Shown in pieces: positions 36,546 to 60,470 of a stretch of DNA of 64,000 nt (its first letter is position 1; every line of letters begins with the position of its first letter). Both the position numbers and the translations under genes were made by a program. Source of the stretch: Schmidtea polychroa (Eukaryota); NCBI GenBank assembly GCA_044892525.1, contig CM097886.1, forward strand, positions 77,996,001 to 78,060,000. Reading direction: 5' to 3'. The notes under the pieces were generated by a model. It was not told where the DNA came from and ran no database searches. It saw only the letters and a list, made by a program, of their open reading frames with translations.

Positions 36546-36961
36546 AGGTTCACAGACAAAAGGTTCACGACAAAATGTTCACAGACAAAAGGTTCATGGA
36601 CAAAGGGTTCATGGACAATAAATCCAAAATAAATAAATCCAAATGTGAATGAATTGTTGTTGTTATACATTTTATTTTCTAAAAGCATGCTTTGTTTATT
36701 TTACAATACCTATAAATCAAAATATTATTTAATGCTGGTGGTAAATAAAGTTTTGTTAACGAAAACATTACAATTTCTATTTTTTTGCATAATATATTTT
36801 GTGTTATTGTCATCTATATACTGATTTTGATACAAATAAAGTTTATTATGTTCAAAATGACTAAAAGTCAAACCCACTTTTTAAAATTTTATTTTGTAGA
36901 CCATTTGTCCATGGCCCATTTGTCTTGAACCATTTGTCTGTGAACATTTTGTCGTGATACC
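36546..36961. mobile_element. MITE whose long inverted ends are built of ~15-bp tandem subrepeats
   Basis: Left end GGTTCACGACAAAATGTTCACAGACAAAAGGTTCATGGACAA mirrors right end TTGTCTGTGAACATTTTGTCGTGATACC; AT-rich core. Confidence 0.75.
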
Positions 36962-40945: not shown

Positions 40946-40948
40946 TTT

Positions 40949-40966
40949 TGGTGAGCCCGACGTGAT
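40949..40966 (+). promoter_or_regulatory. Primer binding site complementary to tRNA-Trp 3' end
   Basis: TGGTGAGCCCGACGTGAT, 3 nt after the 5' LTR; its reverse complement ATCACGTCGGGCTCACCA is nearly identical to the animal tRNA-Trp 3' end (ATCACGTCGGGGTCACCA). Confidence 0.85.
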
Positions 40967-41044
40967 AAAATTATCAGCGGGTAGATATTGAATTAAAACA
41001 AAATAGCGTTAGGAACTAGAGCCAGAGTAAAACTGGAAAATCAA

Positions 41045-43696
41045 ATGGCAGAGGAAGCTAATGTAAATGCATTTGCCAGATATCCCGCTCTGCCCGTAAA
41101 GGCATTCAGCGGTGATCCGGGAGAATTCCCAGAGTTTATGTCTGAATATTATCAGATGGCCAAAGCATATGCCTATCCAGATAATATCATGATACAAAGG
41201 CTACCTATATATTTGAAGGGGCTGGCAAGAGAAAAATATAATGACATTATGGCATTACCAATTGCCCAAGTTCCAAAAACATGGGCTGAAATGAGAGAAC
41301 AAATGACTGCTCGAATATTGCCCGGAGATGCGGGAAGAATATTTAGACAACAATTTTATCACCGAAAACAGAATGCCAATGAACATGTAGGGGAATTTGC
41401 ACACCAGCTATCACTAATTGCTGAAAGAGCATTCGGACCAAAAACCACATGGGCAAAGCCCACAGAATTGTTAGTTAAGGATCAGTTATGGGCAGGACTT
41501 ACTCCTACAATGAGGAACGCTCTAATATTACATACTAGTGATGATTTTGATGAATTGACTCGGAAAGCTGTCGTAATTGAAAGCAGCTTGGAAAAGTCAA
41601 CCATGTTCCTCGTAAACAGTGAAAGAACACCCGTAGAATGTTTCAATTGCCATAGAAAAGGGCATATAGCGAAGGATTGTACCAGCAGGAAAATTATGGA
41701 CAATCGCAAAAGTATGCAATGCACCAAATGTGGACGGAATAACCATGGTGCGGAAAATTGTAGAGTACAGAATTTGCAATGCGAAAAATGTAAACGAAAG
41801 GGACATGTTGCTGCGGTCTGCAAGACTAGAAGTCCTCAGAACAGCAATAATTTTAGCACAATTAAAAGAGATGATGTAAATTCATCAGGAAAGATAAAAT
41901 GTCACGGATGTGGGAAATTCGGACATATGATGAGGTCATGTCCTCAGAACCAGAGTGGAAATACGAGTCAGTTCAATAAAAATACCGATAAGGGTAATGT
42001 GAACAAGTCTAAGACCACTTTCATGGTTAACCAGGATCAAGGGTTAACGTATTTGCAACAACTGGAAATGGAAATCCAGGAGGAAAAGAATAGGTTGGCT
42101 AGATTGACCGACCAAGAAGGCACCATCTTCATGGTAGAAGTTGGAAGAGATGAATATCTCAGAAAAAAGGACTCCGTTAGAGAGGACCTTCAGGAAACGG
42201 AATCAGAGGAGAGTTCCGATGATGAACCTAGTATGGCCACCATACTAAGCGAGTTCGATAGAACCTTGCCAGGGAAAGCAAAGGTAAAAGAAGGGTCGGA
42301 TACCCTAACAAAATGTTTAAAACTGGTGGATTCCAGATATGAGTACCAGCAGAAGCTGGCCAGACAATTGGGAAAATTGGGAGAAACAGAAATTAAAATT
42401 CACGAAATCGATACAGTAGTAAAACTGATATCGCAGGTCGAAGATGATCCAAAGTATCATAACGACACGTACAAAATCCTAAGGAAATTAGGAAAACTCT
42501 TGGAACATGAGTGGGATCTCCAAGATGCCCAGCTCAATATAAAACTCCCACAGGATAAAGAGTATAATCTCGATATAAATGTAAGAAGTCGAGCCGATAA
42601 ATTAAAGGAAACATTGACAAGTATTAAGCATCAAGGATATGACTTATACTTATGTGGAATAAAATTAGAAGCAAATCAAACACTTCTACAGAACGGGATA
42701 CTCCCAGGTAGAGTGACAAAGCTCACAGCAAAGAGAGCACAGAAGCCAGTAGCAGTAATGGATCAAGATAGCGTATTCTTGATTACTCAAATGGAAATAG
42801 AGAGATTGGAAGAAACCCAACAATTAACCCAGCGACTAGGGTTGGAATTGCAGAAATCTCCACGAGATGGAGAAACTATAAAGGAAATACTTGACTGGAT
42901 GTTAGTATTGCGTATACCAGTAGATTTGTTGGAAGCAATAATTCCACTTATACTACCAGTGGTAAAGGAAACAAGCCCATTCCAGACGCAAATTGAAGCT
43001 CTGATGAGGAAAAATGGGAAAGCTATCCGAAGTCAGCCTGATAGACAAGGCAACATTAATCTAGACGTGCGAATGATGGGAAAAGAACCATTAACAATGA
43101 TTTATAATTGCTATATCAAGGTTAAAATATTGAGGAGAGATGTAATTGCCACCGATCAAACTACAGGTATATTCCTGATAATGGTCCATGGCAGGCAGGT
43201 GGATGATGATGAATATTTAGTGGATGTGGGTTGTCTACCGCTGGCAACAACCACGGTAATGATCATCCCAGTAACTCCACCAGAGTCCCAGTGGTCATTA
43301 ATGAGACTGCCAGATATAGCAAACGAAATTGCGGAAGAGATTGAGGAAATAAGATTAGAGGAAATTAATCCCTGTCCAATGGTGGACATTGACGAGGAAG
43401 ATTACTTCTCAGAATACGTCAGATTAAATCCAGGAGAAACAAACATAGGAGCTACTACGTCACAAGCAGTAACAAATCTGGAGACTGAAAAACCTCCGGA
43501 GAAAGTGAAAAAAGATGCACGAGGACGTCCTAGAAAGGATCAAATGAAACCTCCACCCAAGGAGCAGTTAAATCCGGAAACGATCCGGAAAATTCAGTTA
43601 AAAACATTAGCAGGGATAGCTCAAGAAATGGACGACCAGGCGGAGATGAGACAACGTCAGAAAGGTCGTTATTGTGGCAACGTATACAAAAAATGA
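41045..43696 (+). CDS. gag: Extended Gag (883 aa): capsid-like domain, four CCHC zinc knuckles, ~550-aa unknown extension with AT-hook-like motif
   Basis: FSGDPGEFPEF, IYLKGLAREKY, KQNANEHVGEF (retrotransposon gag pattern); CFNCHRKGHIAKDC, CTKCGRNNHGAENC, CEKCKRKGHVAAVC, CHGCGKFGHMMRSC; RGRPRK at 43520-43537. Confidence 0.92.
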   Translation: MAEEANVNAFARYPALPVKAFSGDPGEFPEFMSEYYQMAKAYAYPDNIMIQRLPIYLKGLAREKYNDIMALPIAQVPKTWAEMREQMTARILPGDAGRIFRQQFYHRKQNANEHVGEFAHQLSLIAERAFGPKTTWAKPTELLVKDQLWAGLTPTMRNALILHTSDDFDELTRKAVVIESSLEKSTMFLVNSERTPVECFNCHRKGHIAKDCTSRKIMDNRKSMQCTKCGRNNHGAENCRVQNLQCEKCKRKGHVAAVCKTRSPQNSNNFSTIKRDDVNSSGKIKCHGCGKFGHMMRSCPQNQSGNTSQFNKNTDKGNVNKSKTTFMVNQDQGLTYLQQLEMEIQEEKNRLARLTDQEGTIFMVEVGRDEYLRKKDSVREDLQETESEESSDDEPSMATILSEFDRTLPGKAKVKEGSDTLTKCLKLVDSRYEYQQKLARQLGKLGETEIKIHEIDTVVKLISQVEDDPKYHNDTYKILRKLGKLLEHEWDLQDAQLNIKLPQDKEYNLDINVRSRADKLKETLTSIKHQGYDLYLCGIKLEANQTLLQNGILPGRVTKLTAKRAQKPVAVMDQDSVFLITQMEIERLEETQQLTQRLGLELQKSPRDGETIKEILDWMLVLRIPVDLLEAIIPLILPVVKETSPFQTQIEALMRKNGKAIRSQPDRQGNINLDVRMMGKEPLTMIYNCYIKVKILRRDVIATDQTTGIFLIMVHGRQVDDDEYLVDVGCLPLATTTVMIIPVTPPESQWSLMRLPDIANEIAEEIEEIRLEEINPCPMVDIDEEDYFSEYVRLNPGETNIGATTSQAVTNLETEKPPEKVKKDARGRPRKDQMKPPPKEQLNPETIRKIQLKTLAGIAQEMDDQAEMRQRQKGRYCGNVYKK

Positions 43697-46410
43697 TCGG
43701 GATTATCAGGCCCGAATGGAGAATTCCAAAAATCAAGGGAATCGAAGTAAAGAAAATAACAAAAGAGGTCAAGAAGACAATGGACAGAGTATCCAAAGAT
43801 GTATCAACAAGAGATACCCAGGAGGCCATAGAAGCATTCGTGCAGCAAGGGTTAACAAGAGGGAAAGTGGTAACATCTTTATCATTGTTAATCCAAAATG
43901 CCTTAGCCCGGATAGGGGACGATAAAAGGCTTATAGAACGAGAAATCGATCGAATAGTCGAAATGGTAGATTATTACCTAGAGGTATGGATGACCGTAAA
44001 CAAATTGTGGGAAAAGGAAATAATTCCAAAACCACGATTTGAAGTCGTAGAAGAAGCCATAAATAATGGTAGTCCAGGCACCGGAAACATGACAAGCATG
44101 ATCCTGATGTTCCTAGTGATGATGGGCATATTAAAACAAACAAATTCATTAACAGTATTTGACTGTGGAAATCCTAAACTATCTCGGGTATATTCGCTAG
44201 TAGATGCAATCGAGTGCAAAGAGGCGTATCCCGAGAAGGTTCATCAAGGGGAAAAGGTAGAATATTATGTCTACCAAGAGAGTGAATTTTATAGAACCAC
44301 GATAAAGGAATGTAGAGTTCAGAGAGCTACGTTCGAATATTATTGCGGTAGTAATAGCTATTCTGCTTTTCTATCCGCAACATTAATACCAAGGCCGGTA
44401 AACATAATGCCCGAAGATTGCTTAGATGCATTTCGAAAAGGAAGCATGAGGATAGACAACGAGGTATCAATCTCAGCAGAAATAGGGAAAACATTGGGAA
44501 TAACAATCACCCGAGGAGGAACAATTGCCTCAGATGGAACCTGCGAAGGTAGAAAGAAAATTCGCGGTAGCAATCTGGTTTCCTATGTAGTAGACATAGA
44601 AGATTACTCAGTGGAGCTACGAGAATATGAGGGAACATTCGATGTGGCCACAGGAAAATTAATGGCACATCCGCAATGCAATGCCAAGTTCGGTAGTTGT
44701 AAAACGGGAACCACTACGTTAATTTACGAACAAATGAGAGATCATTGTGAGTTGGCTTTCCTCAAGAAAATTCCTTTTAGAAAATTAAATGGAACTAAAT
44801 ATCGGGACTCCCAGAATCCAGAAAAGGTTTGGGATAAAGCAAAAACGCTGAAGAAAATCAACAAACAAGAGAAGGAAGATATCGGAGAGGAAAACACACC
44901 TCTAGTGTTAATATCGGAAGACAAGACGGAAGCAATTCGATTTGTCCGAAAAGATAAAAAGACTAAATGTGGGAAAAGAGTATACGAGACGAACTATAAA
45001 GGAATTTTCCTGTCAAGAGAATATATCCGGAATTCCAAGGTCCTACATGTAAAGGATATCAAAATCACGAATTATATAAATAATAAGGTAGTATATTTAT
45101 ATCATGATCTGCAGGGACAAATGCAAGATATGTATCAAGAAGTGATACTAAACGATTGTAAGCTAAATCGTGAAATAGTCCGAAATAGATTAGCAATATC
45201 TATCGTTAACCCAGAGTTGGTTACTCCAATGTTATTGGAAGATGGAATGTTTGGCAGAATCATGGGAGAAGCTATATATAGCTATGAGTGTAAACCAGTT
45301 GAAGTACAATTAGCCAGATTTAATCAATGCACTCTAGAACTGCCAGTATCTTACCAAGGAAAATTGAGATTTGTTATGCCAGTAACCAGAAAGTTACTTG
45401 AGGAAAACGCTAAACCTCAACCAGCTATATGCAACCCGGCAATATCACCATTATACAAAATAAATGACATGTGGATATCTCTGCCGGAAAGAAAACCATC
45501 TACACAACGGGTAGAGACCTTGGAGGTGACTAAATTAAAAGATAATCTGGAATTCAAGTCACTAGATGAATTAGCAAAAGGAGGGATCTATACTCCCGAC
45601 GATATCGAGGAAGCAAGGAGGACATTGCTATTCCCACAAATCAGAGACAGAGGTATCACGGAAATTATAAGAACAATTTATCATGATAATTTGATACGAC
45701 CAGATTACAATTTATTATTTGGACCGGAACACTATAAAGAAGCAGCAAAGAACGTAATGATGAAAATATGGGGACGATTTACCAATTTTGGTATTTTCGT
45801 CGCGGGATGTTCAGGAATTTACGCAATATTTGTAATTTTAAAGCTGATAATTACACAACTGATGTCAACATATAGCATATTCAAAATTGGAGGATGGTCA
45901 TGGAAACTGCTATTAGGACTATGTCCTATGTGTGCAGAGTTTGCATTATTCAAACATCACAGAAAAGAAATTAAAGAAATTAGACAGAAACACTTGGTCA
46001 AACATGAAGTAATTGGAACAGAAATGGAGGAGTATTCGAGTTATCGGGACGATAACAATTCAAAGGGAGGAGGTAATGGAGGCTCTCGTGAGACATCTTC
46101 AAGATCAAATCAATCACGAAAACAGAACTACAACAAAAAACCGAATCAGCAACAAAGAAAATCGAGATTCAAGGAATATCTTCCTCCATATGACCAATCA
46201 AAGGAAATCTATGTGAGAAAACAGTCCTCAGAAGGAGAATATGACAGTTCCGACCAAAAATTCGACATAAGGTCACCCAGATTCAAGAGAAGTCCAAGAT
46301 ATGTACAATTGCCAACTTTGAGGAGTTTACCATCCGCACCAAACGAAGGGCGGGAACATTCCAGGGAAACAACACTCAGAACAGGACGACACCAATGGAA
46401 AATCGGTTAA
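43672..46410 (+). CDS. env: Env-like glycoprotein, chuvirus/gB-like (class III fusogen) family; frame open from 43534
   Basis: Signal-like segment MTSMILMFLVMMGILKQTNS (44089-44148) then LTVFDC..P...YSLVDAIEC, ECRVQR..FEYYCG, EDC, GTIASDGTCEG, LNDCKL, EGMFGRIMGEAIYSYECKPVEV, CTLELPV, RFVMPVTRKL, CNPAISPLYKINDMW; TM region IWGRFTNFGIFVAGCSGIYAIFVIL (about 45766-45870) and a second hydrophobic stretch. Confidence 0.8.
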   Translation: MWQRIQKMIGIIRPEWRIPKIKGIEVKKITKEVKKTMDRVSKDVSTRDTQEAIEAFVQQGLTRGKVVTSLSLLIQNALARIGDDKRLIEREIDRIVEMVDYYLEVWMTVNKLWEKEIIPKPRFEVVEEAINNGSPGTGNMTSMILMFLVMMGILKQTNSLTVFDCGNPKLSRVYSLVDAIECKEAYPEKVHQGEKVEYYVYQESEFYRTTIKECRVQRATFEYYCGSNSYSAFLSATLIPRPVNIMPEDCLDAFRKGSMRIDNEVSISAEIGKTLGITITRGGTIASDGTCEGRKKIRGSNLVSYVVDIEDYSVELREYEGTFDVATGKLMAHPQCNAKFGSCKTGTTTLIYEQMRDHCELAFLKKIPFRKLNGTKYRDSQNPEKVWDKAKTLKKINKQEKEDIGEENTPLVLISEDKTEAIRFVRKDKKTKCGKRVYETNYKGIFLSREYIRNSKVLHVKDIKITNYINNKVVYLYHDLQGQMQDMYQEVILNDCKLNREIVRNRLAISIVNPELVTPMLLEDGMFGRIMGEAIYSYECKPVEVQLARFNQCTLELPVSYQGKLRFVMPVTRKLLEENAKPQPAICNPAISPLYKINDMWISLPERKPSTQRVETLEVTKLKDNLEFKSLDELAKGGIYTPDDIEEARRTLLFPQIRDRGITEIIRTIYHDNLIRPDYNLLFGPEHYKEAAKNVMMKIWGRFTNFGIFVAGCSGIYAIFVILKLIITQLMSTYSIFKIGGWSWKLLLGLCPMCAEFALFKHHRKEIKEIRQKHLVKHEVIGTEMEEYSSYRDDNNSKGGGNGGSRETSSRSNQSRKQNYNKKPNQQQRKSRFKEYLPPYDQSKEIYVRKQSSEGEYDSSDQKFDIRSPRFKRSPRYVQLPTLRSLPSAPNEGREHSRETTLRTGRHQWKIG

Positions 46411-46428
46411 GATACCATATTTAATAAT

Positions 46429-49017
46429 TTGACATGCTCGACATTGCCAGAAGTACCTAAAGTGCACTATCCAAAGGAAGCGTTAGAGTCAATTAAAGCT
46501 AAATTCAAAGAGTATAATCCTCAACTGAGTGATCCTGAATTACTGGAAGCAGAACAAACGAGGGCAAATACAATAGGTATATCGCACGATACTATCTTGA
46601 TGGTCAACAACCCAGTGAACTTGGATAAAAAGCCAATGATAAAAATAAGAGTGAACCGACATACAGTTAATGCGGTGATAGACTCAGGAGCAGATGGTAC
46701 CATAATTGAAGCTAAATTGTTAAACCATCATGAACTGCAATCGCTAAAACCGGCAGGAGTAAAATTAACAGGAGCAAACGGATCCTCATTAAACGTAATA
46801 GGGTCATTATCATGCCAGATTAAGCTTTGTGACCAGGAGCTCCATCACGACATCATAGTGATGAGAAGTCTCCCAGCCGAATGTCTATTGGGTATGGACA
46901 TCCTAAAAAGACTACGAGGAGTAGTATTCGACTGTGCTTCTGGATTGTTAATCCGAGCGAGAGGTAAAAAGAGAAAAATTTACAATGATGATACAGCTTA
47001 TATTGATCATACAACTATCATACCACCCAGAGCAGAAACTGTATGCTTTGTAGCTACAAGCAATAATTGGGAAGGTGAAGTTGTATTCGAACCAGATGAA
47101 AAGTTTTCGGAGAAATACAACATACCAGTTACTCATAGCGTAGGCTTAATAGTCAATGGCAGAATACCAATCAGGGTAGCCAATCTGGACATTAAACCAC
47201 TTTACTTATATCCAGATACCAGAGTGGGCAGAATCTGGAAACAAAACGAACCACAAGCCACGGGAGAAGGGTCGATACTCACCGTAAAGGCAGAAGAAAG
47301 AGATCCAGACATTGAGTACTATGATGCACCTACAGCAAACAGCAAAGTGCTAACTAGAAAAGAAAATATTCAAGTAAATATGTTATTGAGGAAATATGAC
47401 CAGGTATTCGCGAAACATGAATACGATCTGGGAAAGACAAACTTGTTAGAACATGAGATTGTTCTCACCAATACAAAACCTATAAAGTTGAGACCATACC
47501 GTATTCCATTCAGTCTGGAGGAATCAGTAGATAAACAGGTGAAACTGATGTTAAAACATGGCATAATCAGGCATAGTAAATCACCATATCAATCACCAAT
47601 GATAGTGGTGGCCAAGAAGGATGGATCAGTACGATTATGTAACGACTATCGCATGGTTAACGAAGCAACATGCAAAGATAGCCATCCATTGCCATTGTTA
47701 GATTATATCTATGGACGCATGAGAGACGCTAGGTTCTTCTCAGTAATGGACGCCCAAAAGGGATTTTATCAAATTAAGTTAAAAGATGAGACTATACCAA
47801 TAACAGCGTTCTCTACGAGTATGGGTCATTACGAATATAACGTAATGCCATTTGGACTCACAGGAGCTCCAGCCACATTTCAAAGAGCAATGAATTTGAT
47901 GCTCATGGATGTACACCATGCGATGGTATACATTGACGACGTCATCGTATTCTCGCCAGATTTGGAAAAACACTTGGAACATTTGGAAGATGTGTTCAAG
48001 AGGTTGATAAATGCCAACATGAAAGTGAAACCCACCAAATGTAAATGGGCTGAACCGGAAGTGGTATATGTTGGCCATATCATATCACGAGACGGGGTTA
48101 AACCCGATCCAGCTAATGTCGAAAAGGTAAAGAATTTCCCGGAGCCTAAAACCGTTAAACATATCAAAGGGTTTTTAGGTCTAGTTGGATACTACAGAAA
48201 ATTCATTAGAAACTTTTCGGTTATAGCTTTTCCACTCACGCAGTTAGAAGGCAAAAATGTCAAATTTGTGTGGGGAACAGAACAGCAAGAAGCATTTGAT
48301 ATGCTCAAGGAAAAACTCATCAAGCCACCTATATTGCGATTTCCAGACTTTGAGAGACAATTTTTGGTTATGACAGATGCCAGCACTCGGGGCATAGGTG
48401 CTGTGTTAGGTCAGAGAGATGACCTAGGAGATGAGTATGCAATTGCATACGCTAGCAGAGGATTAAAACCGCACGAAAGAAACTACGCAGTAATAGAACT
48501 AGAAGCTTTAGCAATTGTGTATGCTATAACCCAGTTTAGGACTTATCTATGGGGTCGAAAGATCATAGTGTATACCGATCATAGACCATTACAGTGGTTG
48601 ACGAAACACACAATGGATACATCACAACTGGTCAGATGGGCATTAATTTTACAGCCATATGACATAGAAATTCATTATAGAAAAGGAGATCATAATGGAA
48701 ATGCAGACGCTTTATCGAGAATGGACCAGGAGGAGGAAGCAGAAGATGTGAAGGAAGGACGTCTTGAAGGGACTATCTTCACACTGACTCGAGAAGCCAA
48801 CCGGCTAGCTGATTTAATGGAGGCACAAAAATCTGACGAAGAAATCAATGTTATTCGTCAAGCCCTGGAAGCGAAATACGTGCCCACAGAATTCGCGAAA
48901 TATTGGGAAAAGAATAAAGACAAATTTGTGCTGGAAGAGGGATTAGTGAAATACTCAGATGTAAGAGATAACGTTATAATGGTTCCTAAGAAATACCGTG
49001 AAGCACTCATGTTGTAG
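46429..49017 (+). CDS. pol: Pol part 1: aspartic protease, dUTPase-like spacer domain, reverse transcriptase, RNase H; ends at TAG 49015-49017 within the integrase N-terminal region
   Basis: VIDSGAD; RLCNDYR, GFYQI, YNVMPFGLTGAPATFQ, YIDD; MTDASTRGIGAVL, ELEALAI, YTDHRPL, NADALSR. Confidence 0.96.
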   Translation: MTCSTLPEVPKVHYPKEALESIKAKFKEYNPQLSDPELLEAEQTRANTIGISHDTILMVNNPVNLDKKPMIKIRVNRHTVNAVIDSGADGTIIEAKLLNHHELQSLKPAGVKLTGANGSSLNVIGSLSCQIKLCDQELHHDIIVMRSLPAECLLGMDILKRLRGVVFDCASGLLIRARGKKRKIYNDDTAYIDHTTIIPPRAETVCFVATSNNWEGEVVFEPDEKFSEKYNIPVTHSVGLIVNGRIPIRVANLDIKPLYLYPDTRVGRIWKQNEPQATGEGSILTVKAEERDPDIEYYDAPTANSKVLTRKENIQVNMLLRKYDQVFAKHEYDLGKTNLLEHEIVLTNTKPIKLRPYRIPFSLEESVDKQVKLMLKHGIIRHSKSPYQSPMIVVAKKDGSVRLCNDYRMVNEATCKDSHPLPLLDYIYGRMRDARFFSVMDAQKGFYQIKLKDETIPITAFSTSMGHYEYNVMPFGLTGAPATFQRAMNLMLMDVHHAMVYIDDVIVFSPDLEKHLEHLEDVFKRLINANMKVKPTKCKWAEPEVVYVGHIISRDGVKPDPANVEKVKNFPEPKTVKHIKGFLGLVGYYRKFIRNFSVIAFPLTQLEGKNVKFVWGTEQQEAFDMLKEKLIKPPILRFPDFERQFLVMTDASTRGIGAVLGQRDDLGDEYAIAYASRGLKPHERNYAVIELEALAIVYAITQFRTYLWGRKIIVYTDHRPLQWLTKHTMDTSQLVRWALILQPYDIEIHYRKGDHNGNADALSRMDQEEEAEDVKEGRLEGTIFTLTREANRLADLMEAQKSDEEINVIRQALEAKYVPTEFAKYWEKNKDKFVLEEGLVKYSDVRDNVIMVPKKYREALML

Positions 49018-51105
49018 TATCACGATGGAGCCTTAGGAGGCCACCTGTCATCTAGAAAAACATTGTCAAGGTTAAAACAGAAATACTTTTGGCCCGGTAT
49101 GAAATCAGATGTTAAAACCTGGTGTCAGACATGTAAGATCTGTATCACCAGAAGAAATACCGGAAAGAAGCCACACGTACCAATGAAGCCGATGCCAGTA
49201 CCATCTACACCTATGGAAATGACGGCAATGGACGTTTTGGGACCATTCAAAGAATCTAATAGCGGAAACAAATACATATTAGTTTTCTGCAACTACTTGA
49301 CTAAGTGGCCAGAGGCCTACCCGATGCCTAATCACAAAGCTGATACAATAGCTAGAATTTTCGTTGAACAAATTGTCTTTAGGTATGGAGTACCTACAAA
49401 GCTATTAACGGATCGGGGAGCTGATTTCATGAGTAATCTGCTCAAAGGAATAAATGATTATTTTGGAGTTCTAAAGTTGAACACTTCCCCATATCACCCA
49501 CAGACGGATGGGCTAGTAGAGCGATTTAATGGAACATTAGCTAATATGTTAGCATCATATGTAAATTCAGGGCAAACGGATTGGGACATCCACATTCCAT
49601 CCTGTTTATTTGCATACAGGAATGCAGTACACGAAGGAACAGGTGAGACACCATTTTACTTAATGTATCTGAGGCAAAGCAAAATGCCAGTAGATCTGTT
49701 GTTCTTCCCTAAAGCAACACAGTATTTAGATCAGGAAGATTATCTAATGGAAATGAGGGAAAGAATGCAGGAAGCATGGGCTAGAGCAGGTCTCAGTATA
49801 AAATATAATCAGGAGGCATCCAAAGATTATCATGACCGAAAAGCCAAGGATCATGGTATATTGGTTGGAGACCAGGTGATGTTGGAAAGTCATTATAACA
49901 AGAAAGGCTTATCACCAAAACTCATGCGAAATTTCAAAGGGCCATATGAGGTATTGAGAACCACGGATACAAATCTCATATTACAATTGTTGGCCAACAG
50001 AAAAGCAGAACCAATAATGGTGCATGCTAATCGGTGTAAAAAGTGCGAAATCTCAACAAAGGGAGCCTCTGGAAATCCAAAAGTAAAAGCACCAGAGAAA
50101 CAAGTGAAACCAAACACTACCGAAGAACCACAAGAACACCGATACCCATTGAGATCAAGGGGTGTTCCAAAATCGGTAACCATTTTGTTAATAATAAGCT
50201 GTATGATGACTTTGGCAATGGCAAAAAGGGATAGAAAGGCATACTTTCAGCCTATGGCGATGCAAGTGAAACATTTACACTTTATAAGAACGTATAACGG
50301 AATTAGCATTCTCACAACGTGCGATAATGCCACAAAATTCAGTTTACATTTCTACAACAAGTACTTGCGGGTCCGCCAACTCGATTCAGAAGAAAAAGAG
50401 TGGGATTTATATGATTTAAAAGCCGAGACGGATTATAAACTGCATATTGCAGCATCAAAGTTATATCAGAGTGGTTGGTATACCTATCACGTATCTAATT
50501 GGATCCTACGGACGGCAGATTTCACAAATCGCATATCGATATCCTACGAGAAGGAGAAAGTAAAGTTTAGCCAGCAAATTAACAGGGAGGAGAAGGTGAA
50601 AATCAGCATTCTAGACGGATCTACCACGAGAGGAACATTATGGTTAGATCAGAACTCCCCCTCCCAAGAAATGTATCTAAATCAGTCCGTAGAATATTCG
50701 GTTCTAGTTATATACTATAGTCCGAGGAAACGGGAGGACGATAGGTGGTTCGAGGTATTTGAGGAGATATTACCTCTGAGACAACCTGTTATAACGAAAA
50801 CACCACCAAAAGTCGTCAAGGAGAACATGGTGATACATCCCGCAATGTGGCAACATCTTAGACAGTTGCCACCTATCCAACAAATATCTTGCCAAACGCC
50901 CCCAAATCTGACAAACTGTTGTGACTGTAATGCCATCACGAACTTTAATGTTGGATATATTCTGAAAATACCCATAGGGGTATGGATTACGGTGTCGGCC
51001 GTACTATCGCTAGTAACTACACTAATAGCTATGGGTATTTGGACCAAGCTATATTTTAGACAAGCCATAAGGGCCTACGATGGAGTACTGATGTCGCAAT
51101 TATGA
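49018..51105 (+). CDS. pol: Pol part 2: integrase (same frame, after the stop) fused C-terminally to a signal peptide + FN3-like ectodomain + TM protein
   Basis: YHDGALGGH...CQTCKIC zinc finger, MDVLGPF, TDRGADF, SPYHPQTDGLVERFN, KGPY; integrase-type end RYPLRSR (50140-50160); then VTILLIISCMMTLAMA, LYDLKAETDYKLHIAA, and TM IPIGVWITVSAVLSLVTTLIAMGIW (about 50968-51043). Confidence 0.9.
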   Translation, partial: YHDGALGGHLSSRKTLSRLKQKYFWPGMKSDVKTWCQTCKICITRRNTGKKPHVPMKPMPVPSTPMEMTAMDVLGPFKESNSGNKYILVFCNYLTKWPEAYPMPNHKADTIARIFVEQIVFRYGVPTKLLTDRGADFMSNLLKGINDYFGVLKLNTSPYHPQTDGLVERFNGTLANMLASYVNSGQTDWDIHIPSCLFAYRNAVHEGTGETPFYLMYLRQSKMPVDLLFFPKATQYLDQEDYLMEMRERMQEAWARAGLSIKYNQEASKDYHDRKAKDHGILVGDQVMLESHYNKKGLSPKLMRNFKGPYEVLRTTDTNLILQLLANRKAEPIMVHANRCKKCEISTKGASGNPKVKAPEKQVKPNTTEEPQEHRYPLRSRGVPKSVTILLIISCMMTLAMAKRDRKAYFQPMAMQVKHLHFIRTYNGISILTTCDNATKFSLHFYNKYLRVRQLDSEEKEWDLYDLKAETDYKLHIAASKLYQSGWYTYHVSNWILRTADFTNRISISYEKEKVKFSQQINREEKVKISILDGSTTRGTLWLDQNSPSQEMYLNQSVEYSVLVIYYSPRKREDDRWFEVFEEILPLRQPVITKTPPKVVKENMVIHPAMWQHLRQLPPIQQISCQTPPNLTNCCDCNAITNFNVGYILKIPIGVWITVSAVLSLVTTLIAMGIWTKLYFRQAIRAYDGVLMSQL

Positions 51106-51228
51106 CAATTACAGACTCCCCCGAGGGAAAAATCATATATAAATATTTATATATATCTTAAAATCTATATTTACGTAGAGCTCCAGGTAGCATTAAAATT
51201 CAGCATATGTAGATCTTTTATAAGACTC

Positions 51229-53391
51229 ATGCATATCTTTTTAGCCTATTATGGCATATCAGTATATCTGATATTATGGTTAATGATTTTTATTTCAGGA
51301 ATGCAGAGCCACCCAATATCCCAATATCAAGGAAGACATAGCATTATACGTGCTACAACCTTACTAAAAGAAAAACTTATTTATAAAAACCTGGAGAAGC
51401 AGGTTATGGAGCAAAGTAGAAAAGGCCAAAGGCACTGGTTTTACGGACATTGTTCAGGCATACCCAATAATTTTAAATTTGACGAGGCCCCAAAGCGTCA
51501 AATGATCATCTCAAGAATCCCGGGTAAGCATAATGGTAGTTTTAGGCTTACCGATGTCATGCTTGAGTTTGGCAGACATAGTCTGACCAACCACCTGTGG
51601 ATACACGCCATTAACAAACCATTTACGGTTTATGTTCCTGGCGCCACAAACCCCATTTTGCTGCAAAAGCACACAACCGTCGAGATAGAAAATGGGGATG
51701 GAAGGGAAAAGAACATCTCACTGTTATGTGAAGGTATAGATACCATCATAGCAATGGAAATTCTGGAACCTCACAGAGAAACACAAACAAGATGGGTTAA
51801 TGACCCAAACTGGACATATAATGTCAACGATAACGACATTAAAACATTTAAGTCTTTCGTTAGACAGCGTTTGAACCCTAGACAAGAGGATAACCTCACC
51901 ATTTTCGTAGCAGCTCACTACGCTACACTACGACAATTCCTGAAACCGGCAATCGTGGCCATCTCGATCTCACACTTCAATGGTGATCTAATACTCAACA
52001 CGAGAGTTACCCCCAGAGCACAGGTCAAACATTACCAATCGCATGCGCATGGTATGACCGAGAAACAAATAACAGGACAGTTCGACGGAGAAGACTGTGC
52101 CGAAAGAATTAGAAAAATCTGCGATGGGAAGATCATCGTGGGATTGCTAGTAAAGGACCTATTAGAAGTAATCAGATTCCCAATGCAGCGCGCACTCGGA
52201 ATTCGTGAGTTAGGCGCAGCTAAATGCCTCGAAAGTAGGGAACTAAAGAAATGCAACGGGTATTACCGTTTGGCATATCTAGCAAAAGCAGTCACCGGTA
52301 AAGAGGCACATCACTTCTCGGACCTACAAACGGAGAATGATGTCACAACCATTAAGGAGATTTACGACAATTTACGAGACATCTGGGTTGATGACATTTC
52401 AACAGACACCCGGAAAGAGGTGGTGTCTTCACAAATAAAGCAGATGGAACCCGGAACCTCAAGCAGGCAGAAACCTCTAGCTATGGAGAGCTATGTGAAA
52501 GAAGATATCCCCAGGTCAAAGTTGTTGAAAATAGTGGAAGAAGATTCCTTGTCGCCGCCAGCCATTTCAATTGCTGATGAAGACGACTATGCCACTTGTG
52601 AGAGTGCAGACGATAACTGCCTCCAAGTCACCCTTACCAATGACGGTAGAGTGGTGAATTCGGCTAAAATGGAAATAGACAAACCACAGCCAGCAGAAAA
52701 ATTAGTTGAACGGGTCACCAAGATCCTGAAAGCATTGGCCCCGTTGGGTGAACCCAAACAAGGAGCAGAAGGAGGAACGTTACCCCAAGCTGTAGCACCA
52801 TTACTTAAGCTACAAGATTTGAAGTTTAAAAAGAAAACAACGGAGAAACTCCCCCAGAAAGAGGACAAGGAGAAAAATGTCCCTATCTCCGCAAAAAGGA
52901 AAAAGGAGATTCCTAAGAGTACGAAAAAGAAAATGCCTAGGATATCCATCCAGGATGAGGATGACGATCTCCTCGAAACCCACTATCAGCCACCAGATCC
53001 TGCGTTGACCAAGATATTGGCAACAAAGAGTGAACCCACGATTGCAGGAGAACCGATCGTCGTGAAGGAAGGCGAGTTCGTCGGAAGGGGCAACTCAATC
53101 AAAATACGGGAAGATCTCGACAGAGAAGATCCTAGTTGGTGGCAGAGACCCGACAGCAAATGGAAACCGCGTATCAAGGAATACGACGGAGGCCCAATCC
53201 ATGAAGTAGCCGTATCCAATTTCCCCGATTACGGAGTATTGGAGGCTAATGAGGGCTCATATATCATCTCCTCAATTGTGTACAAAGAGGTAAGTACACG
53301 GGAGACTTTGGTGGTCAGTTACAGACCTGACATTGTAGAACAAAGGATCCGTAACGAAAGTGCCAAGGTCATGAAAAGGAGAAAATACTAG
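51229..53391 (+). CDS. Accessory ORF4 (probably 696 aa from ATG 51301) with DEDDh/REX4-ISG20-like exonuclease fold, catalytic residues apparently altered
   Basis: Segment 51898-52375 follows the REX4/ISG20 pattern (AISISHFNGDLILNTRVTP, VKHY...HGMT, GKIIVG, IRE, RLAYLAKAVTG, ENDVTTIKEIY). Long stop-free ORF inside the element before the PPT. Confidence 0.7.
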   Translation: MHIFLAYYGISVYLILWLMIFISGMQSHPISQYQGRHSIIRATTLLKEKLIYKNLEKQVMEQSRKGQRHWFYGHCSGIPNNFKFDEAPKRQMIISRIPGKHNGSFRLTDVMLEFGRHSLTNHLWIHAINKPFTVYVPGATNPILLQKHTTVEIENGDGREKNISLLCEGIDTIIAMEILEPHRETQTRWVNDPNWTYNVNDNDIKTFKSFVRQRLNPRQEDNLTIFVAAHYATLRQFLKPAIVAISISHFNGDLILNTRVTPRAQVKHYQSHAHGMTEKQITGQFDGEDCAERIRKICDGKIIVGLLVKDLLEVIRFPMQRALGIRELGAAKCLESRELKKCNGYYRLAYLAKAVTGKEAHHFSDLQTENDVTTIKEIYDNLRDIWVDDISTDTRKEVVSSQIKQMEPGTSSRQKPLAMESYVKEDIPRSKLLKIVEEDSLSPPAISIADEDDYATCESADDNCLQVTLTNDGRVVNSAKMEIDKPQPAEKLVERVTKILKALAPLGEPKQGAEGGTLPQAVAPLLKLQDLKFKKKTTEKLPQKEDKEKNVPISAKRKKEIPKSTKKKMPRISIQDEDDDLLETHYQPPDPALTKILATKSEPTIAGEPIVVKEGEFVGRGNSIKIREDLDREDPSWWQRPDSKWKPRIKEYDGGPIHEVAVSNFPDYGVLEANEGSYIISSIVYKEVSTRETLVVSYRPDIVEQRIRNESAKVMKRRKY

Positions 53392-53685
53392 CAATTCGGC
53401 TATGTGTTCAATGGACCTAGCAATTTGCTATACGTCCTCAATCCCAACGCCTTCGACAACTCAATCCAATCCAGATATTCAAATTGATAGACATTATGAA
53501 CAACATTTGATTAATCTGATTCTTGATTTTGTTTAACAATTTTTGATTATTTTGATTTTGACTTTGATTGCTTTATATATATATTTTAATCAGTTGATTC
53601 ATTTTATTTTTATTTTTATTTTTTATGTATCTGCTGCAAATTGTCTTACCTTTACCGCTTTAATTTTCGGGACGAAAATCTTGTT

Positions 53686-53695
53686 AGGGGGAAGA
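53686..53695 (+). other. Polypurine tract
   Basis: AGGGGGAAGA two bases before the 3' LTR start at 53698. Confidence 0.85.
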
Positions 53696-53697
53696 CA

Positions 53698-54737
53698 TGT
53701 TGGGGTTCAGTAGGAACCGGAAATAAACGTTCGAAATTAGATAATAAATAAAATAATAATTAATTACCAAAATTAGGATTAAAATAAAAATAGTATTTTA
53801 AAATTACCAAAAATAGAAATTAAATACTAAAATTAAAATGAAAACATAATTAGTAATAAATAATTACTAAAAATAGAATTGTAGGAATTATTTAAAATAT
53901 ATAATAAAAATAGTAATTAAACAATTACTATTAATAGAATTACGTAAAATAAATTTGTATAAATAGCAGATAAAAAATTAGATGAAGGGACGAAGATAGG
54001 AGTGAGAAAAAACCGCAGTGATTAAAATTAGGAACCAATTCTATTTATAGTAACGATCAAGTTTCGTCAAGTGATAAGAATCGTATCGATTGAAAGAAAA
54101 TTAGTTTCGTAAATTTTTGGGAATTTATTTCTGTGCACATAGACAGTTGGATTACAGAAATCGTGATAATTATTGGAAATATCAAATCGATAGTTAATTT
54201 GTGGAATAATTATTAAAACTCTCTTCAGTACTATTTAAGGAATATCAGTTAGTTTTATCAATATTTTAATTATTAATATTTGAATAATTGTAAAGGTATT
54301 TATAAAGGGTTTATTTGCTTTAAATAAATTTAGGGGATATCCTGACGTCAGCACGAATTTTGTGTTGTCTCGTTAGTAATATTTATTAAAAAGAATTAAC
54401 CAATTTCTGGGTTAATTCTATAGCGTAAATTTTGGTGATTGTCCCGTTCTCTTTTCCTTTCACCTACATCGGGCTGTTGGCGCATTTAGGGCCAGCCTTG
54501 ATACTTAGTAACACTCTTCAGGGCGGTTTGAATAACCGTTTTCTATACTTAGAGAAAGCAGCGCGGTGTAACTATATTTATACATATTTAAACGTGTAAC
54601 TAACTTTTAATTGAAAATAAATATTGGAAACATATCTCTTATTTATTTATTTGATTACCTACGCGCATAAATTATTTACTTGGAGTCAGATAGAACATTT
54701 TTGTGTTAGTTCGAAGACATACCCATCGAACCTAACA
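53698..54737 (+). repeat. 3' LTR (1040 bp)
   Basis: Direct repeat of 39906-40945. Confidence 0.97.
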
Positions 54738-55106
54738 TTTTGTTTTAATTCTTATTTTCTAATTATTGTTTCTCTTATTTCTTATTCTATTTATTCCTGA
54801 ATTTATTTATTTTATTTTTATTTTCCTTTAATATCTTACTATCTCATTGTTTATATTTTTGAAAGTTCAGTTTTTGACTCAGCCCAATAAATGCCATAAA
54901 ACCGCCTTTGGTTGAAGTAGAGAGTTGGATTCGGCATTCTTGGGGAAAAATTAATACGAATATTATCAATAATGGGCTACGCGCATCATATCTATTATAC
55001 AATCAGAATTTTAGTGAAACTTTAATTTACAATCAAGAAATATACGGCGAAAAAATCAGAGCTGCACTTGATAATTTACGTAATCAGGATATCAGTGCAT
55101 CCAGTC

Positions 55107-58088
55107 TAGGGATGGCAATCCGGATAATATTCGGTTTGAACTATCCGGATATTTTCTGAATTACGGATAATTCGAAATCCGGATATTTTGAATCAATTAT
55201 CCGGATATTTGATTTTCGAAAAAGTAAATTTTTATCGTTTCAAAAATTTAAATTTTACAGGGTTTTTCATCGTATTTTGACAATGTGTCAACCAATTTTG
55301 ACATTGTGTCACCGTATTTTGACAAGTAAAAAAACTATTATAAATATTTGTAGATGAATTATTTATATAAAATATTTTATTTCTTATAGTTAAAAAAGTC
55401 ATTTACAACAATTAAATCAAAAAAAACATTATATTGGTATTTTCACAATTTTTAATTAAAAAAACAAATATAGTCGAAATATGGAATAAATTGTTTTTAA
55501 TAATGGCATATATACTGGTTCTCCTGAAGCTAAGGATCTTGGAAATTTCAGATGCGTTATGTCCATTTAAATACGCATCCAAAATCCTTTTCCGATCATG
55601 ATTATTGATATGTTGATTGACCATTAAGGGTGTATTAAAAAATTTTTCATTTGTCAAAATACGGTGACACAATGTCAAAATTGATTGACACTATGTCAAA
55701 ATACGGTGACACAATGTCAAAATTGGTTGACACAATGTCAAAATACGATGACAAAATGTCAAAATACGGTGAAAAACCCTGTATAATCAGACTTGGCTGT
55801 GCACTAACATTACATTTAGAGATTTTTGTTTTACTCGTATTTAAATCAAATCAGAGTTAGTTGTGCAGTGCACTTTGTTTTGGTGGTATTTCTGTGCTGA
55901 AAAACGAATTTAAATCAAATTAAAGGTATGTATGAATATATTTAAAATTTTAAAAATTTATATATTAGTTTGTATTTTGTAGGGTTATCGTTATAATAAT
56001 GTCTTCAAAAAAATCGGAGGTTTGGATTCACTTTGAAAAACATAGTTCTGAGGAGGCGACATGTAGAAAATGTGGTAATAATATCAAATGTAAAGGATCT
56101 TCTACAACTCCACTCATAAATCATTTGAAAAGACATGAAATTTATATCAACAAAAGAACGTCGAATCAAGAAGAAACTACAAGTGTCAAATCTTCAAAAA
56201 TTGTAAATTCACAACAAATTTTAAAGTTTGTTAAGAGAGAAAGCTTAGGTGAGTTATTAGCAAAATGTGCTGCAAAAGATGGATTTTCAATCCACGCAAT
56301 AACTAATTCATCAGCAATTAGAGAATTTATACATAAAAGAGGATTCGAAATGCCACGTAGTCGAAACACAGTTAAAAACTTATAATTCAGTTTTACGAAC
56401 AGAAACGAGAAGAACTTAAAAACAATCTAAATACAAAAAAAAACAATGAACAAAAATTCAGTATTACAGTCGATGAATGGACGGACATAAATATGAAGCG
56501 TTATATGAATGTTACACTACATAGCAAGAGTATCTGTTATAAATTAGGATTGGCAAAAATCGATGGATCTTGTGACGCTGAAAAAACTAAAAAAATAGTG
56601 AAAGATAAACTTTTAGAATTCGGTATTCAGTTTTCAGATATTGTTGCCTCCACGCATGATGGTGCTGCTCTTATGCAGAAGTATGGACGAAATATTTCTG
56701 CAATCAGTCAATTGTACTACAATCACGCCATTCATTTGGCCGTGATTGGTGTTTTTTTTTAAAAAAACAGGAACGGTTACGACATCTGATGATGAAAATA
56801 ATAGCGAATTTGATGAGCAGTCTGAAAACGATTCTGATTATGATTATGAAAATAGTGATATTGAACACGAAAATATGAATTTAGGATTTGATAATACTGG
56901 TGTTAATAATATACTTATGAGACCTGACATTAATGTTGTTATATCTGAATCACGGAGGCTTATAAAATTTTTTAAATTTTCTGCTGTTCGAAAAAATGTT
57001 CTTCAAAAATATGTTATGGAACAAGAAAAAAAAGAATTACATTTACTGTTGGATTGCAAAACCAGGTGGAACTCATTGGTCCCTATGATTGAGCGACTCC
57101 TAAAGTTAAAAAAATGTATTAAACAATCATTGATTGACTTATTAGGAACGGAAAAAGAATATTACAATGAACAAAATTTCGTAATCCTAGAAAATATGTT
57201 AAATATCTTAAAACCACTTGAATTAGGTGTAAAAGAGTTGAGTAACGAACAAGCAACACTTTTATCTAGCGAAGGTGTTTTTAAATTTATGTTTAAAAAA
57301 TTACACGATATTGATTCAGATTTGAGCAATGAAATGTTGACGTCATTAAAAACAGAAATTTTAAAACGAAGAAATAAAGAAGTAGTATCTTTGATGAAAT
57401 TTCTACAAAATTCATCAATCTCCCGAGATGATAATTTTGATGATATTACATATGCTTCGAAACCAGCAATCTATGCCTATGCAAAAGATACAATGAGTCG
57501 ATTGTATGCAATTCCAGAAGATGAAAATCATGTGTCTTCGTCCGGATCTGAGGATGAAATTTGCGAACCGATTACATTGGTTATGGGATTGAAAAAATCT
57601 ATAGCTTCCATGAGCAGTGAAAATCCAACAAAATTTCAAAAAAATAATTTTGACTCTTTACAAAAAGAATTTAAACTTCTTGAAGGCAATGGAAAACTAA
57701 CTCACAACTTAGAAAAACTTTTGAATGCTCTTAATACGATTCAACCAACCTCCACTAGCAATGAGAGAGTTTTCTCGGTGGCTGGTACATTTTCAACAAA
57801 ATTAAGAAGTAGACTTCAGTTTCCATTGTTGAACGCTTTGGTAATCTTGAAATATTATTTCAATAATGAATAATAAATTAATAATGATTAAAAATAATAA
57901 AACTATATTATTATATACTTTCTTTTTCTTGAATTAAATAAAATGAACTTAAAAACTAAAATATTTTGATTTTTTTATCTAAATTTCAGAATTGGCAAAT
58001 ATCCGAATAGTATCCGGATATCCGGATATTTCATTTTTAAGCTATTTGATATCCGGATACCAGAAAGTCCGGATAATTGACATCTCTA
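55107..58088 (+). mobile_element. hAT DNA transposon with frameshifted BED-finger transposase, inserted in the pogo element
   Basis: Imperfect TIRs TAGGGATGGCAAT / ATTGACATCTCTA; perfect 8-bp TSD ATCCAGTC (55099-55106, 58089-58096); ATCCGGAT subterminal repeats; SEVWIHF..CRKC..HLKRH, DEWT, STHDGAA, LLLDCKTRWNSL, PTSTSNERVFS (55999-57873 in three frames). Confidence 0.95.
55258..55781 (-). mobile_element. Tc1/mariner-derived non-autonomous element, 524 bp, with 21-bp subterminal tandem repeats
   Basis: TIR CAGGGTTTTTCA(T/C)CGTATTTTGAC flanked by TA on both sides; GACACAATGTCAAAAT(ACGGT/TGGTT) repeats; HTH remnant DRKRILDAYLNGHNASEISKIL on the minus strand. Confidence 0.9.
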
Positions 58089-59312
58089 ATCCAGTCAGAT
58101 TATTGAAGATGATATGGACGACGAAACGGCTATTTTTGAATAAAAAAACTACTCCCAATACAAGTCTTTTTTGTATTTTTAAACAATTTTACGCAAAAAA
58201 ACAAATACAAGTCATGACTTTTATTCGGCAAAACACGGTATATAAAAAATTTTAAAATAGTATTTTCAAATTAACATTTTAAATTCATAATGTAAAATGT
58301 TTATAAATTTAAAATTATAAATTTAGGGTATCCAAACTGTAATTATTGTATTATTCACTTTAATTTAAAACTTTCGTTGCAAATTTTCATTTACTGCTCC
58401 ATTTTTTCCCATTTCCTTGCCCTAAAATTTTAACTGAATTTTTCTTTAATTATTTTTTATTTCAGCTATCAATTAGTATATTTTTAACCTTTGATTTTAC
58501 TGATTCTGCTCGATTTGGTACGATTTACCCATTACTTTATCTTAAATTATTTTTCAGTTTATTTTGTTTTTCACTGCTATCATATCTAATTTATTGTTTA
58601 AATCGATATAATCTTTATATGACTTTATATGATTTCTGTTGCCAATTTCCGTTGGAATTCTGAACTAAACTTTATTCGGGTATTTTACTAAAAATACCAT
58701 TTCATCTTGATAAATTTGGTTCTCTCCACTTAATAAAATATTAATCACATTTTTGTACTATAATTTCCGTTTTTAATACTTTGTTCACACTTGCATTTCG
58801 AATTTAATAATATTTATTTTCGAATTTAATATTTAATAGTATTTTTTAGTATTTAATAGCATTTAATAGTCCTACAAACATTTTTCAATTCTTTGAACAT
58901 TATTTACATTTTTCTTTCATATGTTTTTATCTTTCTTATGTTGAAGTTTTTCATTAGAAGTGAACCCTTTAGCGTACACCCCTGTTGACTATAATCAACC
59001 GTAGAAAAAGGGATTGTCTGTGACGTAATTAACCATTTAAAAATTATTTAATCAAAATAACTAAATGAATTAATATAATTAAAACTTAGTTTCAAATAGC
59101 GTTCTATTATTATTTAATATAACAGTTGAAAAGATTTTTTACTTTAAAATTACTCTGATTAATATTTTATCTGAATTGTATGCAGTTTCAGAAATCTCTA
59201 TTCTCTGAATTTAACAAAAGAAGCTTCCCATTTTTATTAATTATTCAAGAATTTCATTTGGTTACTTGGCTATTGGTACTTATTAATTCATAAATATCTT
59301 TTATATAATAGA

Positions 59313-60470
59313 ATGAATTTTATTCCAGTTATTTTATGGTATTATATTATGGTAATGAATGCACGATTTAAAGTTAAAAAGAAGTATGAATTTTCACCGA
59401 TTATGTTGTCAAATGGTCGTAGAGTCTCCTTCGAAATATACGAAACATCTAATAGTTGTAAAATAATTTATAATAATTCGTATGTAAATAACTTATCGAC
59501 AATTAAACGCTTTCCCTATTTCTTAAATAGTGAAAAGTTGCTGTCAACACTCTACGATCAAGAAGGAGATGAAATTCGAACTTATAATGGTAACGAGTCG
59601 AATTTAGTATTAAAAAGAAGACATTATTTTGATATTGCGAAAGATAAAAGAGATATGTCAGATTTAAATAAATTTAGTTTAAAAGAATACACTCCATATT
59701 CCTGCTGGGAACTTCAAACAAAACCATTTTCAGTACAAGAACTTTCCGATAAATTCGAAACCATTAATGAATCCTCTAACTCCTCTTTGACTTTTAAATC
59801 TGTTTCAAAGTTTATGAATAGAAAATTAACATTTTTAATATCATCCAGTAAAAGTGATAATTCAAATAACAAATCCGTTGAGTTGCCTTCTAAAAAGGAA
59901 TTTTATCCATACAGAAACAAAACTCTTGGGTTGACTATTTGTGAACGAAATATCATCAAATCACACGAAAATTTAAGTAAATCTGTAATTTTCAAATCAC
60001 CATTATGTAAAAATAATAGAAATTATTTAGTCTATGGATCAACTCCAATATTTTCTTCAACTATATGTATTCCTCTGAAATTCACCAGAAATAATTTGCT
60101 CCAAGATGCATCATTTTCGCCGAAGTTTACTCCAAAATTTTGGTTTTCCAATACAAATATCTCTCAAATTGATAATAAAATAAATAATAAGAATTATGAA
60201 AATGAATATATCACTAAATATGATTCTTACAAAAGTATTGAGTCGTTATTTTGCAACAGTCAACTTACCGAAGCGGATATTGGAAATGAAAGTAAACCTA
60301 AATTCGAGAAGGAAAACATTCATTCATTATCATCAGAAAAAGATATATTTACTTTTAATATTAAAAAAGTCAAATCTCAACTGCGACCAATTGAAAATGC
60401 AAAAATATTTAATCATGGCCGAATGTATATATTTAAACAATTTCCAAGCAATAAATTTAATAGAAATTAA
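59313..60470 (+). CDS. Orphan ORF, 385 aa, S/N/K-rich, unknown function
   Basis: 1158-nt stop-free frame in very AT-rich DNA, unlikely by chance; no family motif recognised; start uncertain. Confidence 0.55.
   Translation: MNFIPVILWYYIMVMNARFKVKKKYEFSPIMLSNGRRVSFEIYETSNSCKIIYNNSYVNNLSTIKRFPYFLNSEKLLSTLYDQEGDEIRTYNGNESNLVLKRRHYFDIAKDKRDMSDLNKFSLKEYTPYSCWELQTKPFSVQELSDKFETINESSNSSLTFKSVSKFMNRKLTFLISSSKSDNSNNKSVELPSKKEFYPYRNKTLGLTICERNIIKSHENLSKSVIFKSPLCKNNRNYLVYGSTPIFSSTICIPLKFTRNNLLQDASFSPKFTPKFWFSNTNISQIDNKINNKNYENEYITKYDSYKSIESLFCNSQLTEADIGNESKPKFEKENIHSLSSEKDIFTFNIKKVKSQLRPIENAKIFNHGRMYIFKQFPSNKFNRN

Follow-up and report, generated by a model that had tools for sequence, protein, structure and literature searches.

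The window analysed here, a 64-kb stretch of DNA, carries a complete LTR element whose genes and other features are collected in Table 1. The sequence around the element is AT-rich and eukaryotic in character (GC about 0.3). The LTRs, target-site duplication, primer-binding site, polypurine tract, protease-reverse transcriptase-RNase H-integrase order and gB-type env located between gag and pol place the element among the Ty3/gypsy errantiviruses of the gag-env-pol type. Comparison of the 5' and 3' LTRs gave 99.42% identity (6 mismatches). The element is a recent insertion, and its fourth gene, ORF4, was open at the time it moved. Neither a second copy nor a solo LTR was found within the 64 kb, and no Rfam family and no tRNA were found. 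The pol gene of this copy is interrupted by an in-frame TAG (49015-49017), located where the integrase zinc-binding domain begins and without the CARYYA context, and owing to this stop the copy is probably not autonomous.

Table 1 Features of the LTR element and of ORF4 (window coordinates)
Feature	Position	Strand	Remarks
LTR element, complete, 14.8 kb	39906-54737	+	gene order gag, env, pol, ORF4
Target-site duplication	39902-39905 and 54738-54741		TTTT
5' LTR, 1040 bp	39906-40945	+	TG...CA
Primer-binding site	40949-40966	+	tRNA-Trp-like; 1 mismatch in 12 nt versus Trp_CCA ends (PMC13524379 supplement 1)
gag, 883 aa	41045-43696	+	Retrotrans_gag, four CCHC knuckles
env, 905 aa	43693-46410	+	Monjiviricetes fusion glycoprotein PF24664, E 3e-89
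pol	46411-51105	+	protease, RT, RNase H, integrase, GPY; same frame as env
pol tail, 311 aa	50170-51105	+	signal-peptide-like stretch, 3 N-glycosylation sequons, 6 Cys, C-terminal TM helix
pol/ORF4 junction	51103-51300	+	TGA then CAATTA; 65 open codons in frame with ORF4; acceptor-like TTTCAG/G at 51293-51299
ORF4, accessory gene, 696 aa	51301-53391	+	open frame; four closest relatives begin at equivalent Met
N-terminal domain, aa 1-157	51301-51771	+	predicted degenerate 2OG-Fe(II) dioxygenase fold, AlkB/prolyl-hydroxylase type; conserved IPNxxK, His102, Ser/Thr126, Glu153
SFxR linker motif	51853-51864	+
REX4/ISG20-type DEDDh domain, aa about 198-365	51892-52395	+	1 of 5 catalytic residues present
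Charged, poorly conserved region, residues about 370-640	52408-53220	+	KRKK at 52894
Short C-terminal beta-type motif, aa 652-674	53254-53322	+	recurs near C-terminus of some relatives; weak
KRRKY basic end	53374-53388	+	unconserved
Polypurine tract	53686-53695	+
3' LTR	53698-54737	+

The coding region upstream of ORF4 has several features of its own. Env, pol and ORF4 occupy a single reading frame. After an A-run, gag ends and env begins within a shared ATGA (43693-43696), which suggests termination-reinitiation or frameshifting, and gag extends about 550 aa beyond its four zinc knuckles (42050-43696, plus strand) into a region having no Pfam match. Env contains an internal signal-peptide-like stretch plus a TM helix. 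Between the env TAA and the first pol ATG, 63 codons are open (46408-46599, plus strand), and the stretch has 0 stops where the remaining forward frames have 4 and 8. The 311-aa pol tail gave no match in Pfam or the PDB; judged by its sequence features it resembles a type I membrane protein, and it may be a second protein associated with the envelope and joined to integrase. The sole primer-site mismatch to tRNA-Trp (40949-40960) yields the splice-donor-like G/GTGAG, which a donor scan gave as a candidate donor for a subgenomic RNA.

Other genes and repeats share the window. An uninterrupted frame for a mitochondrial carrier (PF00153; 32542-33534, plus strand) is likely a host gene. A Tc5/pogo-like transposase (37713-38870, plus strand) and two hAT/BED-finger transposase remnants (55999-57873, plus strand, and 26051-28052, minus strand) are present, and inverted repeat arms (37502-37533 and 58214-58245) flank the LTR element and suggest nested insertions. 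Other LTR elements have left decayed pieces of integrase and RNase H (2348-3688 and 20587-21210, both minus strand), which lack nucleotide similarity to the ORF4 element. MITE-like inverted repeats lie at 55252-55787 and 36541-36957, the first having 21-nt tandem subunits, and a 385-aa ORF (59313-60470, plus strand) has no Pfam match.

ORF4 belongs to a divergent two-domain family

The 696-codon open frame of ORF4 was confirmed as initially annotated. An in-frame ATG upstream (51229) gives a 720-aa form, but the start at 51301 is supported by the four closest relatives, which start at the equivalent Met. ORF4 alone was assigned to no family in Pfam or NCBIfam, phage genomes gave no match, and word-index homolog searches with either ORF4 or the family alignment returned nothing. 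The relatives emerged only from a full HMMER scan of the protein library. With an E cutoff of 0.001 there were 76; a cutoff of 1e-10 left 32 and one of 1e-30 left 4. The best are 28-35% identical to ORF4. These relatives are known as protein sequences only, and their retroelement origin is an assumption. The 720-aa form also matched GCN5 over aa 639-669 (E 0.14), which was dismissed as chance.

ORF4 is a member of a divergent family whose proteins combine a degenerate AlkB/prolyl-hydroxylase-type domain, a REX4/ISG20-type DEDDh domain, a charged disordered region and a small C-terminal motif. We hold this architecture and the accompanying catalytic loss with high confidence. Judged from the alignments, two folds are present here without their canonical catalytic residues, and constraint at the protein level is kept across the divergent family. 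As both domains lack catalytic residues, this ORF4 copy would be a double pseudoenzyme.

The N-terminal domain models as a dioxygenase fold

Residues 1-195, modeled from an alignment with 51 relatives (pLDDT 87.4), form a double-stranded beta-helix core with N-terminal strands and a helix. The model was compared with 48,161 representative chains, and the best matches listed span residues 1-157. Best among these is an algal prolyl hydroxylase (2jij; Z 11.1, rmsd 2.5, 132 aligned); also listed are ALKBH3 (Z 11.0, rmsd 3.4, 146 aligned), E. coli AlkB (Z 10.9), and rice ALKBH1 and human ALKBH6 (both Z 10.6). Foldseek searches of PDB and viral libraries were in agreement. The fold matches share 4-12% identity with the domain, the top Z scores of the AlkB and prolyl hydroxylase matches are tied within 1, and the family profile gave no sequence-level match to either. 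The two best viral fold matches listed, BFVD A0A1L3KJH2_2 (E 1.4e-5) and A0A1L3KJL3_2 (E 1.6e-4), are unnamed 1100-aa proteins.

The 2OG-Fe(II) dioxygenases carry an H-x-D/E motif plus a distal His and a 2OG-binding Arg. Within motif windows set by eye from AlkB motifs, without residue-level superposition, H-x-D/E was found in 2 of 52 rows, neither having the distal His, and R-x5-R in 0 of 52. Conserved instead among the 51 relatives are Pro55 (48), Asn56 (43), His102 (45), Ser/Thr126 (46) and Glu/Asp153 (48), and His102 and Glu153 may form a metal site of an alternative kind.

The initial annotation had likened this region to an FHA domain. FHA domains are marked by conserved G-R, S-x-x-H and N-G motifs. 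However, the FGR that had been quoted sits in an insertion missing from 41-44 of the 51 relatives, and the region models as a dioxygenase fold. Pfam gave no FHA match to the query or the family, and the fold matches listed, which are dioxygenase and cupin folds, include no FHA entry. On the strength of the model, a degenerate AlkB/prolyl-hydroxylase-type fold explains the domain better than does FHA.

The nuclease domain keeps the REX4/ISG20 scaffold but lacks the active site

The query alone matched only ISG20L2 (E 0.017-0.07). A profile of the query plus its 76 relatives matched ISG20L2 (2e-31), ISG20 (2.2e-20), SDN1 (8.4e-17), PAN2 (about 1e-4) and also PolC exonuclease, which bears out the REX4/ISG20 scaffold proposed earlier for this part of ORF4. 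Pfam RNase_T (PF00929) was matched by 32 of the 77 family members. The Atlas model of one relative (P0025) resembles REX4 clusters, and Atlas feature matches were RNase_T clusters (0.82-0.87), which are leads only. The nuclease fold of the query rests on the profile match plus the P0025 model, as a single-sequence model of aa 42-374 had a pLDDT of 33 and was unusable.

The domain had been called a probable pseudo-exonuclease, and alignment of the catalytic positions agrees, only one of the five residues being retained. Exo I is indeed IFVAAHY, where Ala (51910) stands in for the first Asp and His (51916) for the Glu. The His of Exo III is missing as described, Leu taking its place (52324). The acidic position of Exo II, which the initial annotation overlooked, is likewise Leu (52159), and the last Asp (52339) is the sole survivor. 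Numbered from 51301, the query thus has A204, H206, L287, L342 and D347 at the five catalytic columns.

Catalytic residues could be scored in 59 of the 77 rows, the 18 having a gap at one or more catalytic columns having been dropped. All five residues were retained in 33 rows, none in 21, one in 4 (including the query) and two in 1, and no row had three or four. Glu occupies the Exo II position in 19 of the 33 full-site members. The full-site members carry the Exo III His and their best matches are DEDDh enzymes, which sets the family apart from the RNase D-like DEDDy subclass (Exo III Tyr). A profile of the 33 full-site members scored the query at 184 bits versus at most 4.4 for 200 shuffles, a dependent test in that those 33 members were themselves found with the query.

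The site-lacking rows (n=24) keep many residues outside the catalytic positions: Pro238 and Arg239 are present in 24, Phe202, Asp262 and Gly300 in 23, Glu153 in 22, Arg302 in 21 and Trp362 in 20. Mean identity of the nuclease domain is relaxed in the site-lacking group (24.5% versus 34%), whereas that of the N-terminal domain is equal in both groups (18.8% versus 19.1%). In a tree that included the catalytic columns, all 33 full-site members lay on one side of one branch. The single origin of the dead forms that this tree implied was not upheld once those columns were removed: a tree of 53 rows lacking them and including the N-terminal domain gave four changes of state, at least two of them forced. 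Both trees were quick and unrooted and came with long-branch warnings. Given at least two forced changes, the active site may have been lost repeatedly while the gene persisted.

A captured host gene adrift without function would also lose catalytic residues, and indeed four of the five are gone in ORF4 and the pol gene of this element copy is broken. However, ORF4 remains open for 696 codons, and its closest relatives (28-35% identity) are also without the catalytic site yet retain the same scaffold motifs. Moreover, no member has three or four of the five residues, the pattern expected from gradual decay. Owing to this bimodal distribution, decay is most improbable.

The C-terminal part of ORF4

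To judge from its composition, the charged region that follows the nuclease domain is probably disordered. The short motif beyond it was scored with profiles from 14 seeds chosen by eye: a whole-tail profile gave 6.8 bits (2 of 500 shuffles scored higher) and a narrower profile 8.1 bits (0 of 1000). The basic NLS-like end, KRRKY, reported in the initial annotation is present in ORF4 but is no family feature, a basic end being found in 2 of 45 proteins of at least 400 aa, the query included.

Expression of ORF4

ORF4 is probably expressed by splicing, and reading through the pol stop may provide a second route: a spliced subgenomic RNA would give ORF4 from 51301, and a minor readthrough extension of pol would perhaps be made as well. 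The acceptor-like TTTCAG/G lies two bases ahead of the ORF4 ATG. The ORF3 genes of rotifer LTR elements are typically spliced, according to the available part of PMC5408684. In four relatives (P0011, P0038, P0045 and P0059) the N-terminal extensions that were predicted close with a hydrophobic stretch and a Gln immediately upstream of the conserved start. Seen at the protein level, such extensions could be a translated splice acceptor.

Alternatively, most ORF4 protein might come not from a spliced RNA but from ribosomes that read through the pol stop, which would append it to the pol tail in a membrane-anchored form. The TGA-CAATTA at the junction fits the CARYYA consensus. Of the stop triplets in the interior of the element, 2 of 639 have this context behind them; for the whole window the figure is 10 of 4103. 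The linker of 65 codons is hydrophobic and has 0 stops in the ORF4 frame versus 2-9 in the other five, and shuffling gave a linker this open 25 times in 5000 at the dinucleotide level and 50 times in 5000 at the trinucleotide level. Both CARYYA readthrough and suppression of the SIRE1 pol/env stop have been described in the parts of the literature available to us. However, 28 of 822 comparable AT-rich frames of the window are equally open, and the junction statistics were computed after the pattern had been noticed. RNA structure 3' of the stop is unremarkable (z -1.36), and both the acceptor two bases before the ATG and the equivalent Met of the four closest relatives argue against readthrough. 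As the main route, readthrough is therefore unlikely, and splicing remains the preferred one.

Possible functions of ORF4

The architecture of ORF4 is solid and unexpected, and it is from the architecture that we infer function. A role in counter-defence through RNA binding is our tentative reading, with a probability somewhat short of even. The two domains together would form a nucleic-acid clamp gripping RNA 3' ends. Relatives having the full site would trim RNA, whereas the ORF4 copy would bind without cutting. ORF4 would thereby shield the element RNA against host 3' exonucleases or sequester small-RNA substrates or partners. Both parent folds include nucleic-acid enzymes (AlkB among the fold matches, ISG20 and SDN1 by profile), which is in keeping with RNA binding. 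Maelstrom and EXD1 are inactive DEDD derivatives that have retained RNA binding and act in piRNA biogenesis, as given in the available text of PMC5408684. However, given the tie of AlkB and prolyl hydroxylase matches, the ligand of the N-terminal domain could be a peptide and not RNA.

A silencing-suppressor or decoy role, as the initial annotation put forward by analogy with arenavirus NP, would be plausible, but the analogy is a poor fit. The exonuclease activity of NP is reportedly essential for immune suppression, as the title of an arenavirus study is said to state, and because that activity is essential the comparison suits the active half of the family rather than the ORF4 copy.

Another role lies within replication itself. 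Inside the particle, active members would trim the 3' ends of RNA or cDNA while RNA matures or is reverse transcribed, site-lacking members would be a structural part of the ribonucleoprotein, and no counter-defence would be involved. Processing of the 3' ends of element RNA has been proposed for the rotifer DEDDy ORF3s (in the accessible part of PMC5408684), and the CARYYA context plus the open in-frame linker could bring ORF4 into particles as a pol extension. In contrast, if trimming were needed, 26 of 59 members should not be able to do without it, and a TM helix lies between pol and ORF4. We consider this role rather unlikely.

ORF4 might instead act on proteins, its degenerate dioxygenase domain binding a host protein and its dead nuclease, perhaps in the nucleus, mimicking REX4/ISG20-like enzymes of the host in a dominant-negative manner. 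The poxvirus proteins C16, C4 and C10 have a dioxygenase-like domain that binds a host protein, and Vaccinia C16 N-terminal domains are among the fold matches listed (8ag3; Z 8.5, rmsd 3.5, 132 aligned). Prolyl hydroxylases tie for the top match, and KRKK and KRRK motifs are present. However, C16 falls more than 2 Z units under the best rows listed and the basic C-terminal end is unconserved. Moreover, the same domain adjoins a full nuclease site in 33 members, suggesting substrate handling. Such a protein-protein decoy seems distinctly unlikely, and RNA binding in counter-defence remains the reading that we prefer.

A bolder form of the RNA-binding reading can be drawn. The dead AlkB-like domain would recognise RNA that carries methyl groups, such as m6A or methylated ends of small RNAs, and hand it to the ISG20/SDN1-like exonuclease. 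The proteins would be an unrecognised anti-silencing family of invertebrate endogenous retroviruses, half of which destroy RNA and half of which, after repeated site loss, sequester it. From the present element, a free protein and a membrane-anchored readthrough form might both arise. Taken as a whole, this scheme is a long shot.

Discussion

For most accessory genes carried by LTR elements of invertebrates no assignment exists, and the DEDDy proteins of rotifers and the AlkB of orchids raise the question of whether such genes counter piRNA, siRNA or m6A surveillance. As natural forms with and without the nuclease site exist in the ORF4 family, catalysis and binding are directly comparable in vitro. 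The ORF4 copy is invisible to Pfam and occurs in a gene layout whose survey, in the available text of PMC13524379, omits such a gene.

The gag-env-pol errantiviruses having an HSV/gB-type env are known from Nematoda, Bryozoa and Platyhelminthes, and their gene order and env class are identical to those of the present element (PMC13524379, available part). A host from among these three groups is therefore plausible. The Trp-primed rows seen there are from an annelid, a beetle and a tunicate. The main text of that survey, as available, mentions exonuclease, DEDD and nuclease 0 times. We did not find a dioxygenase-fold/DEDDh fusion in a retroelement in the literature, although subscription papers, Repbase or the supplements of PMC13524379 could describe one.

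Among cellular proteins, REX4, ISG20, ISG20L2 and plant SDN1 (PDB 7yw5, 1wlj and 5z9x) resemble the ORF4 family over the whole nuclease domain (E 2e-31 to 8e-17), and 33 of 59 members keep their five-residue site. In contrast to those enzymes, ORF4 is encoded by an element, is fused to a dioxygenase-fold domain and has one of the five residues.

Viral AlkB domains share the 2OG-dioxygenase fold with ORF4. Vaccinia C16 is reported to be catalytically inactive. It is also a virus-encoded dioxygenase-like fold (8ag3, Z 8.5), but it is a DNA-virus protein having no nuclease domain and 4% identity, and a common fold shows no common function.

Two retroelement systems are closer. ORF3 of the bdelloid rotifer Juno and Vesta elements is a DEDD-superfamily nuclease encoded, like ORF4, by a separate accessory ORF of an LTR element, and is typically spliced, with DEDD altered to DEED. 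However, it is RNase D-like (DEDDy) with intact residues, and its host elements are without env (PMC5408684, in the part available, which mentions DEDDh, AlkB and cupin 0 times). The AlkB ORF of Phalaenopsis orchid Ty3/gypsy elements is likewise a 2OG-dioxygenase fold carried as an extra ORF of a gypsy element, but its enzyme actively demethylates m6A and is close to AlkB proteins (PMC9289625, in the part available), whereas the ORF4 fold is seen by structure only, has lost the motifs and is fused to a nuclease. Rotifer LTR elements with DEDDy nucleases and orchid gypsy elements with active AlkB are thus known separately; in the ORF4 family both folds are joined.
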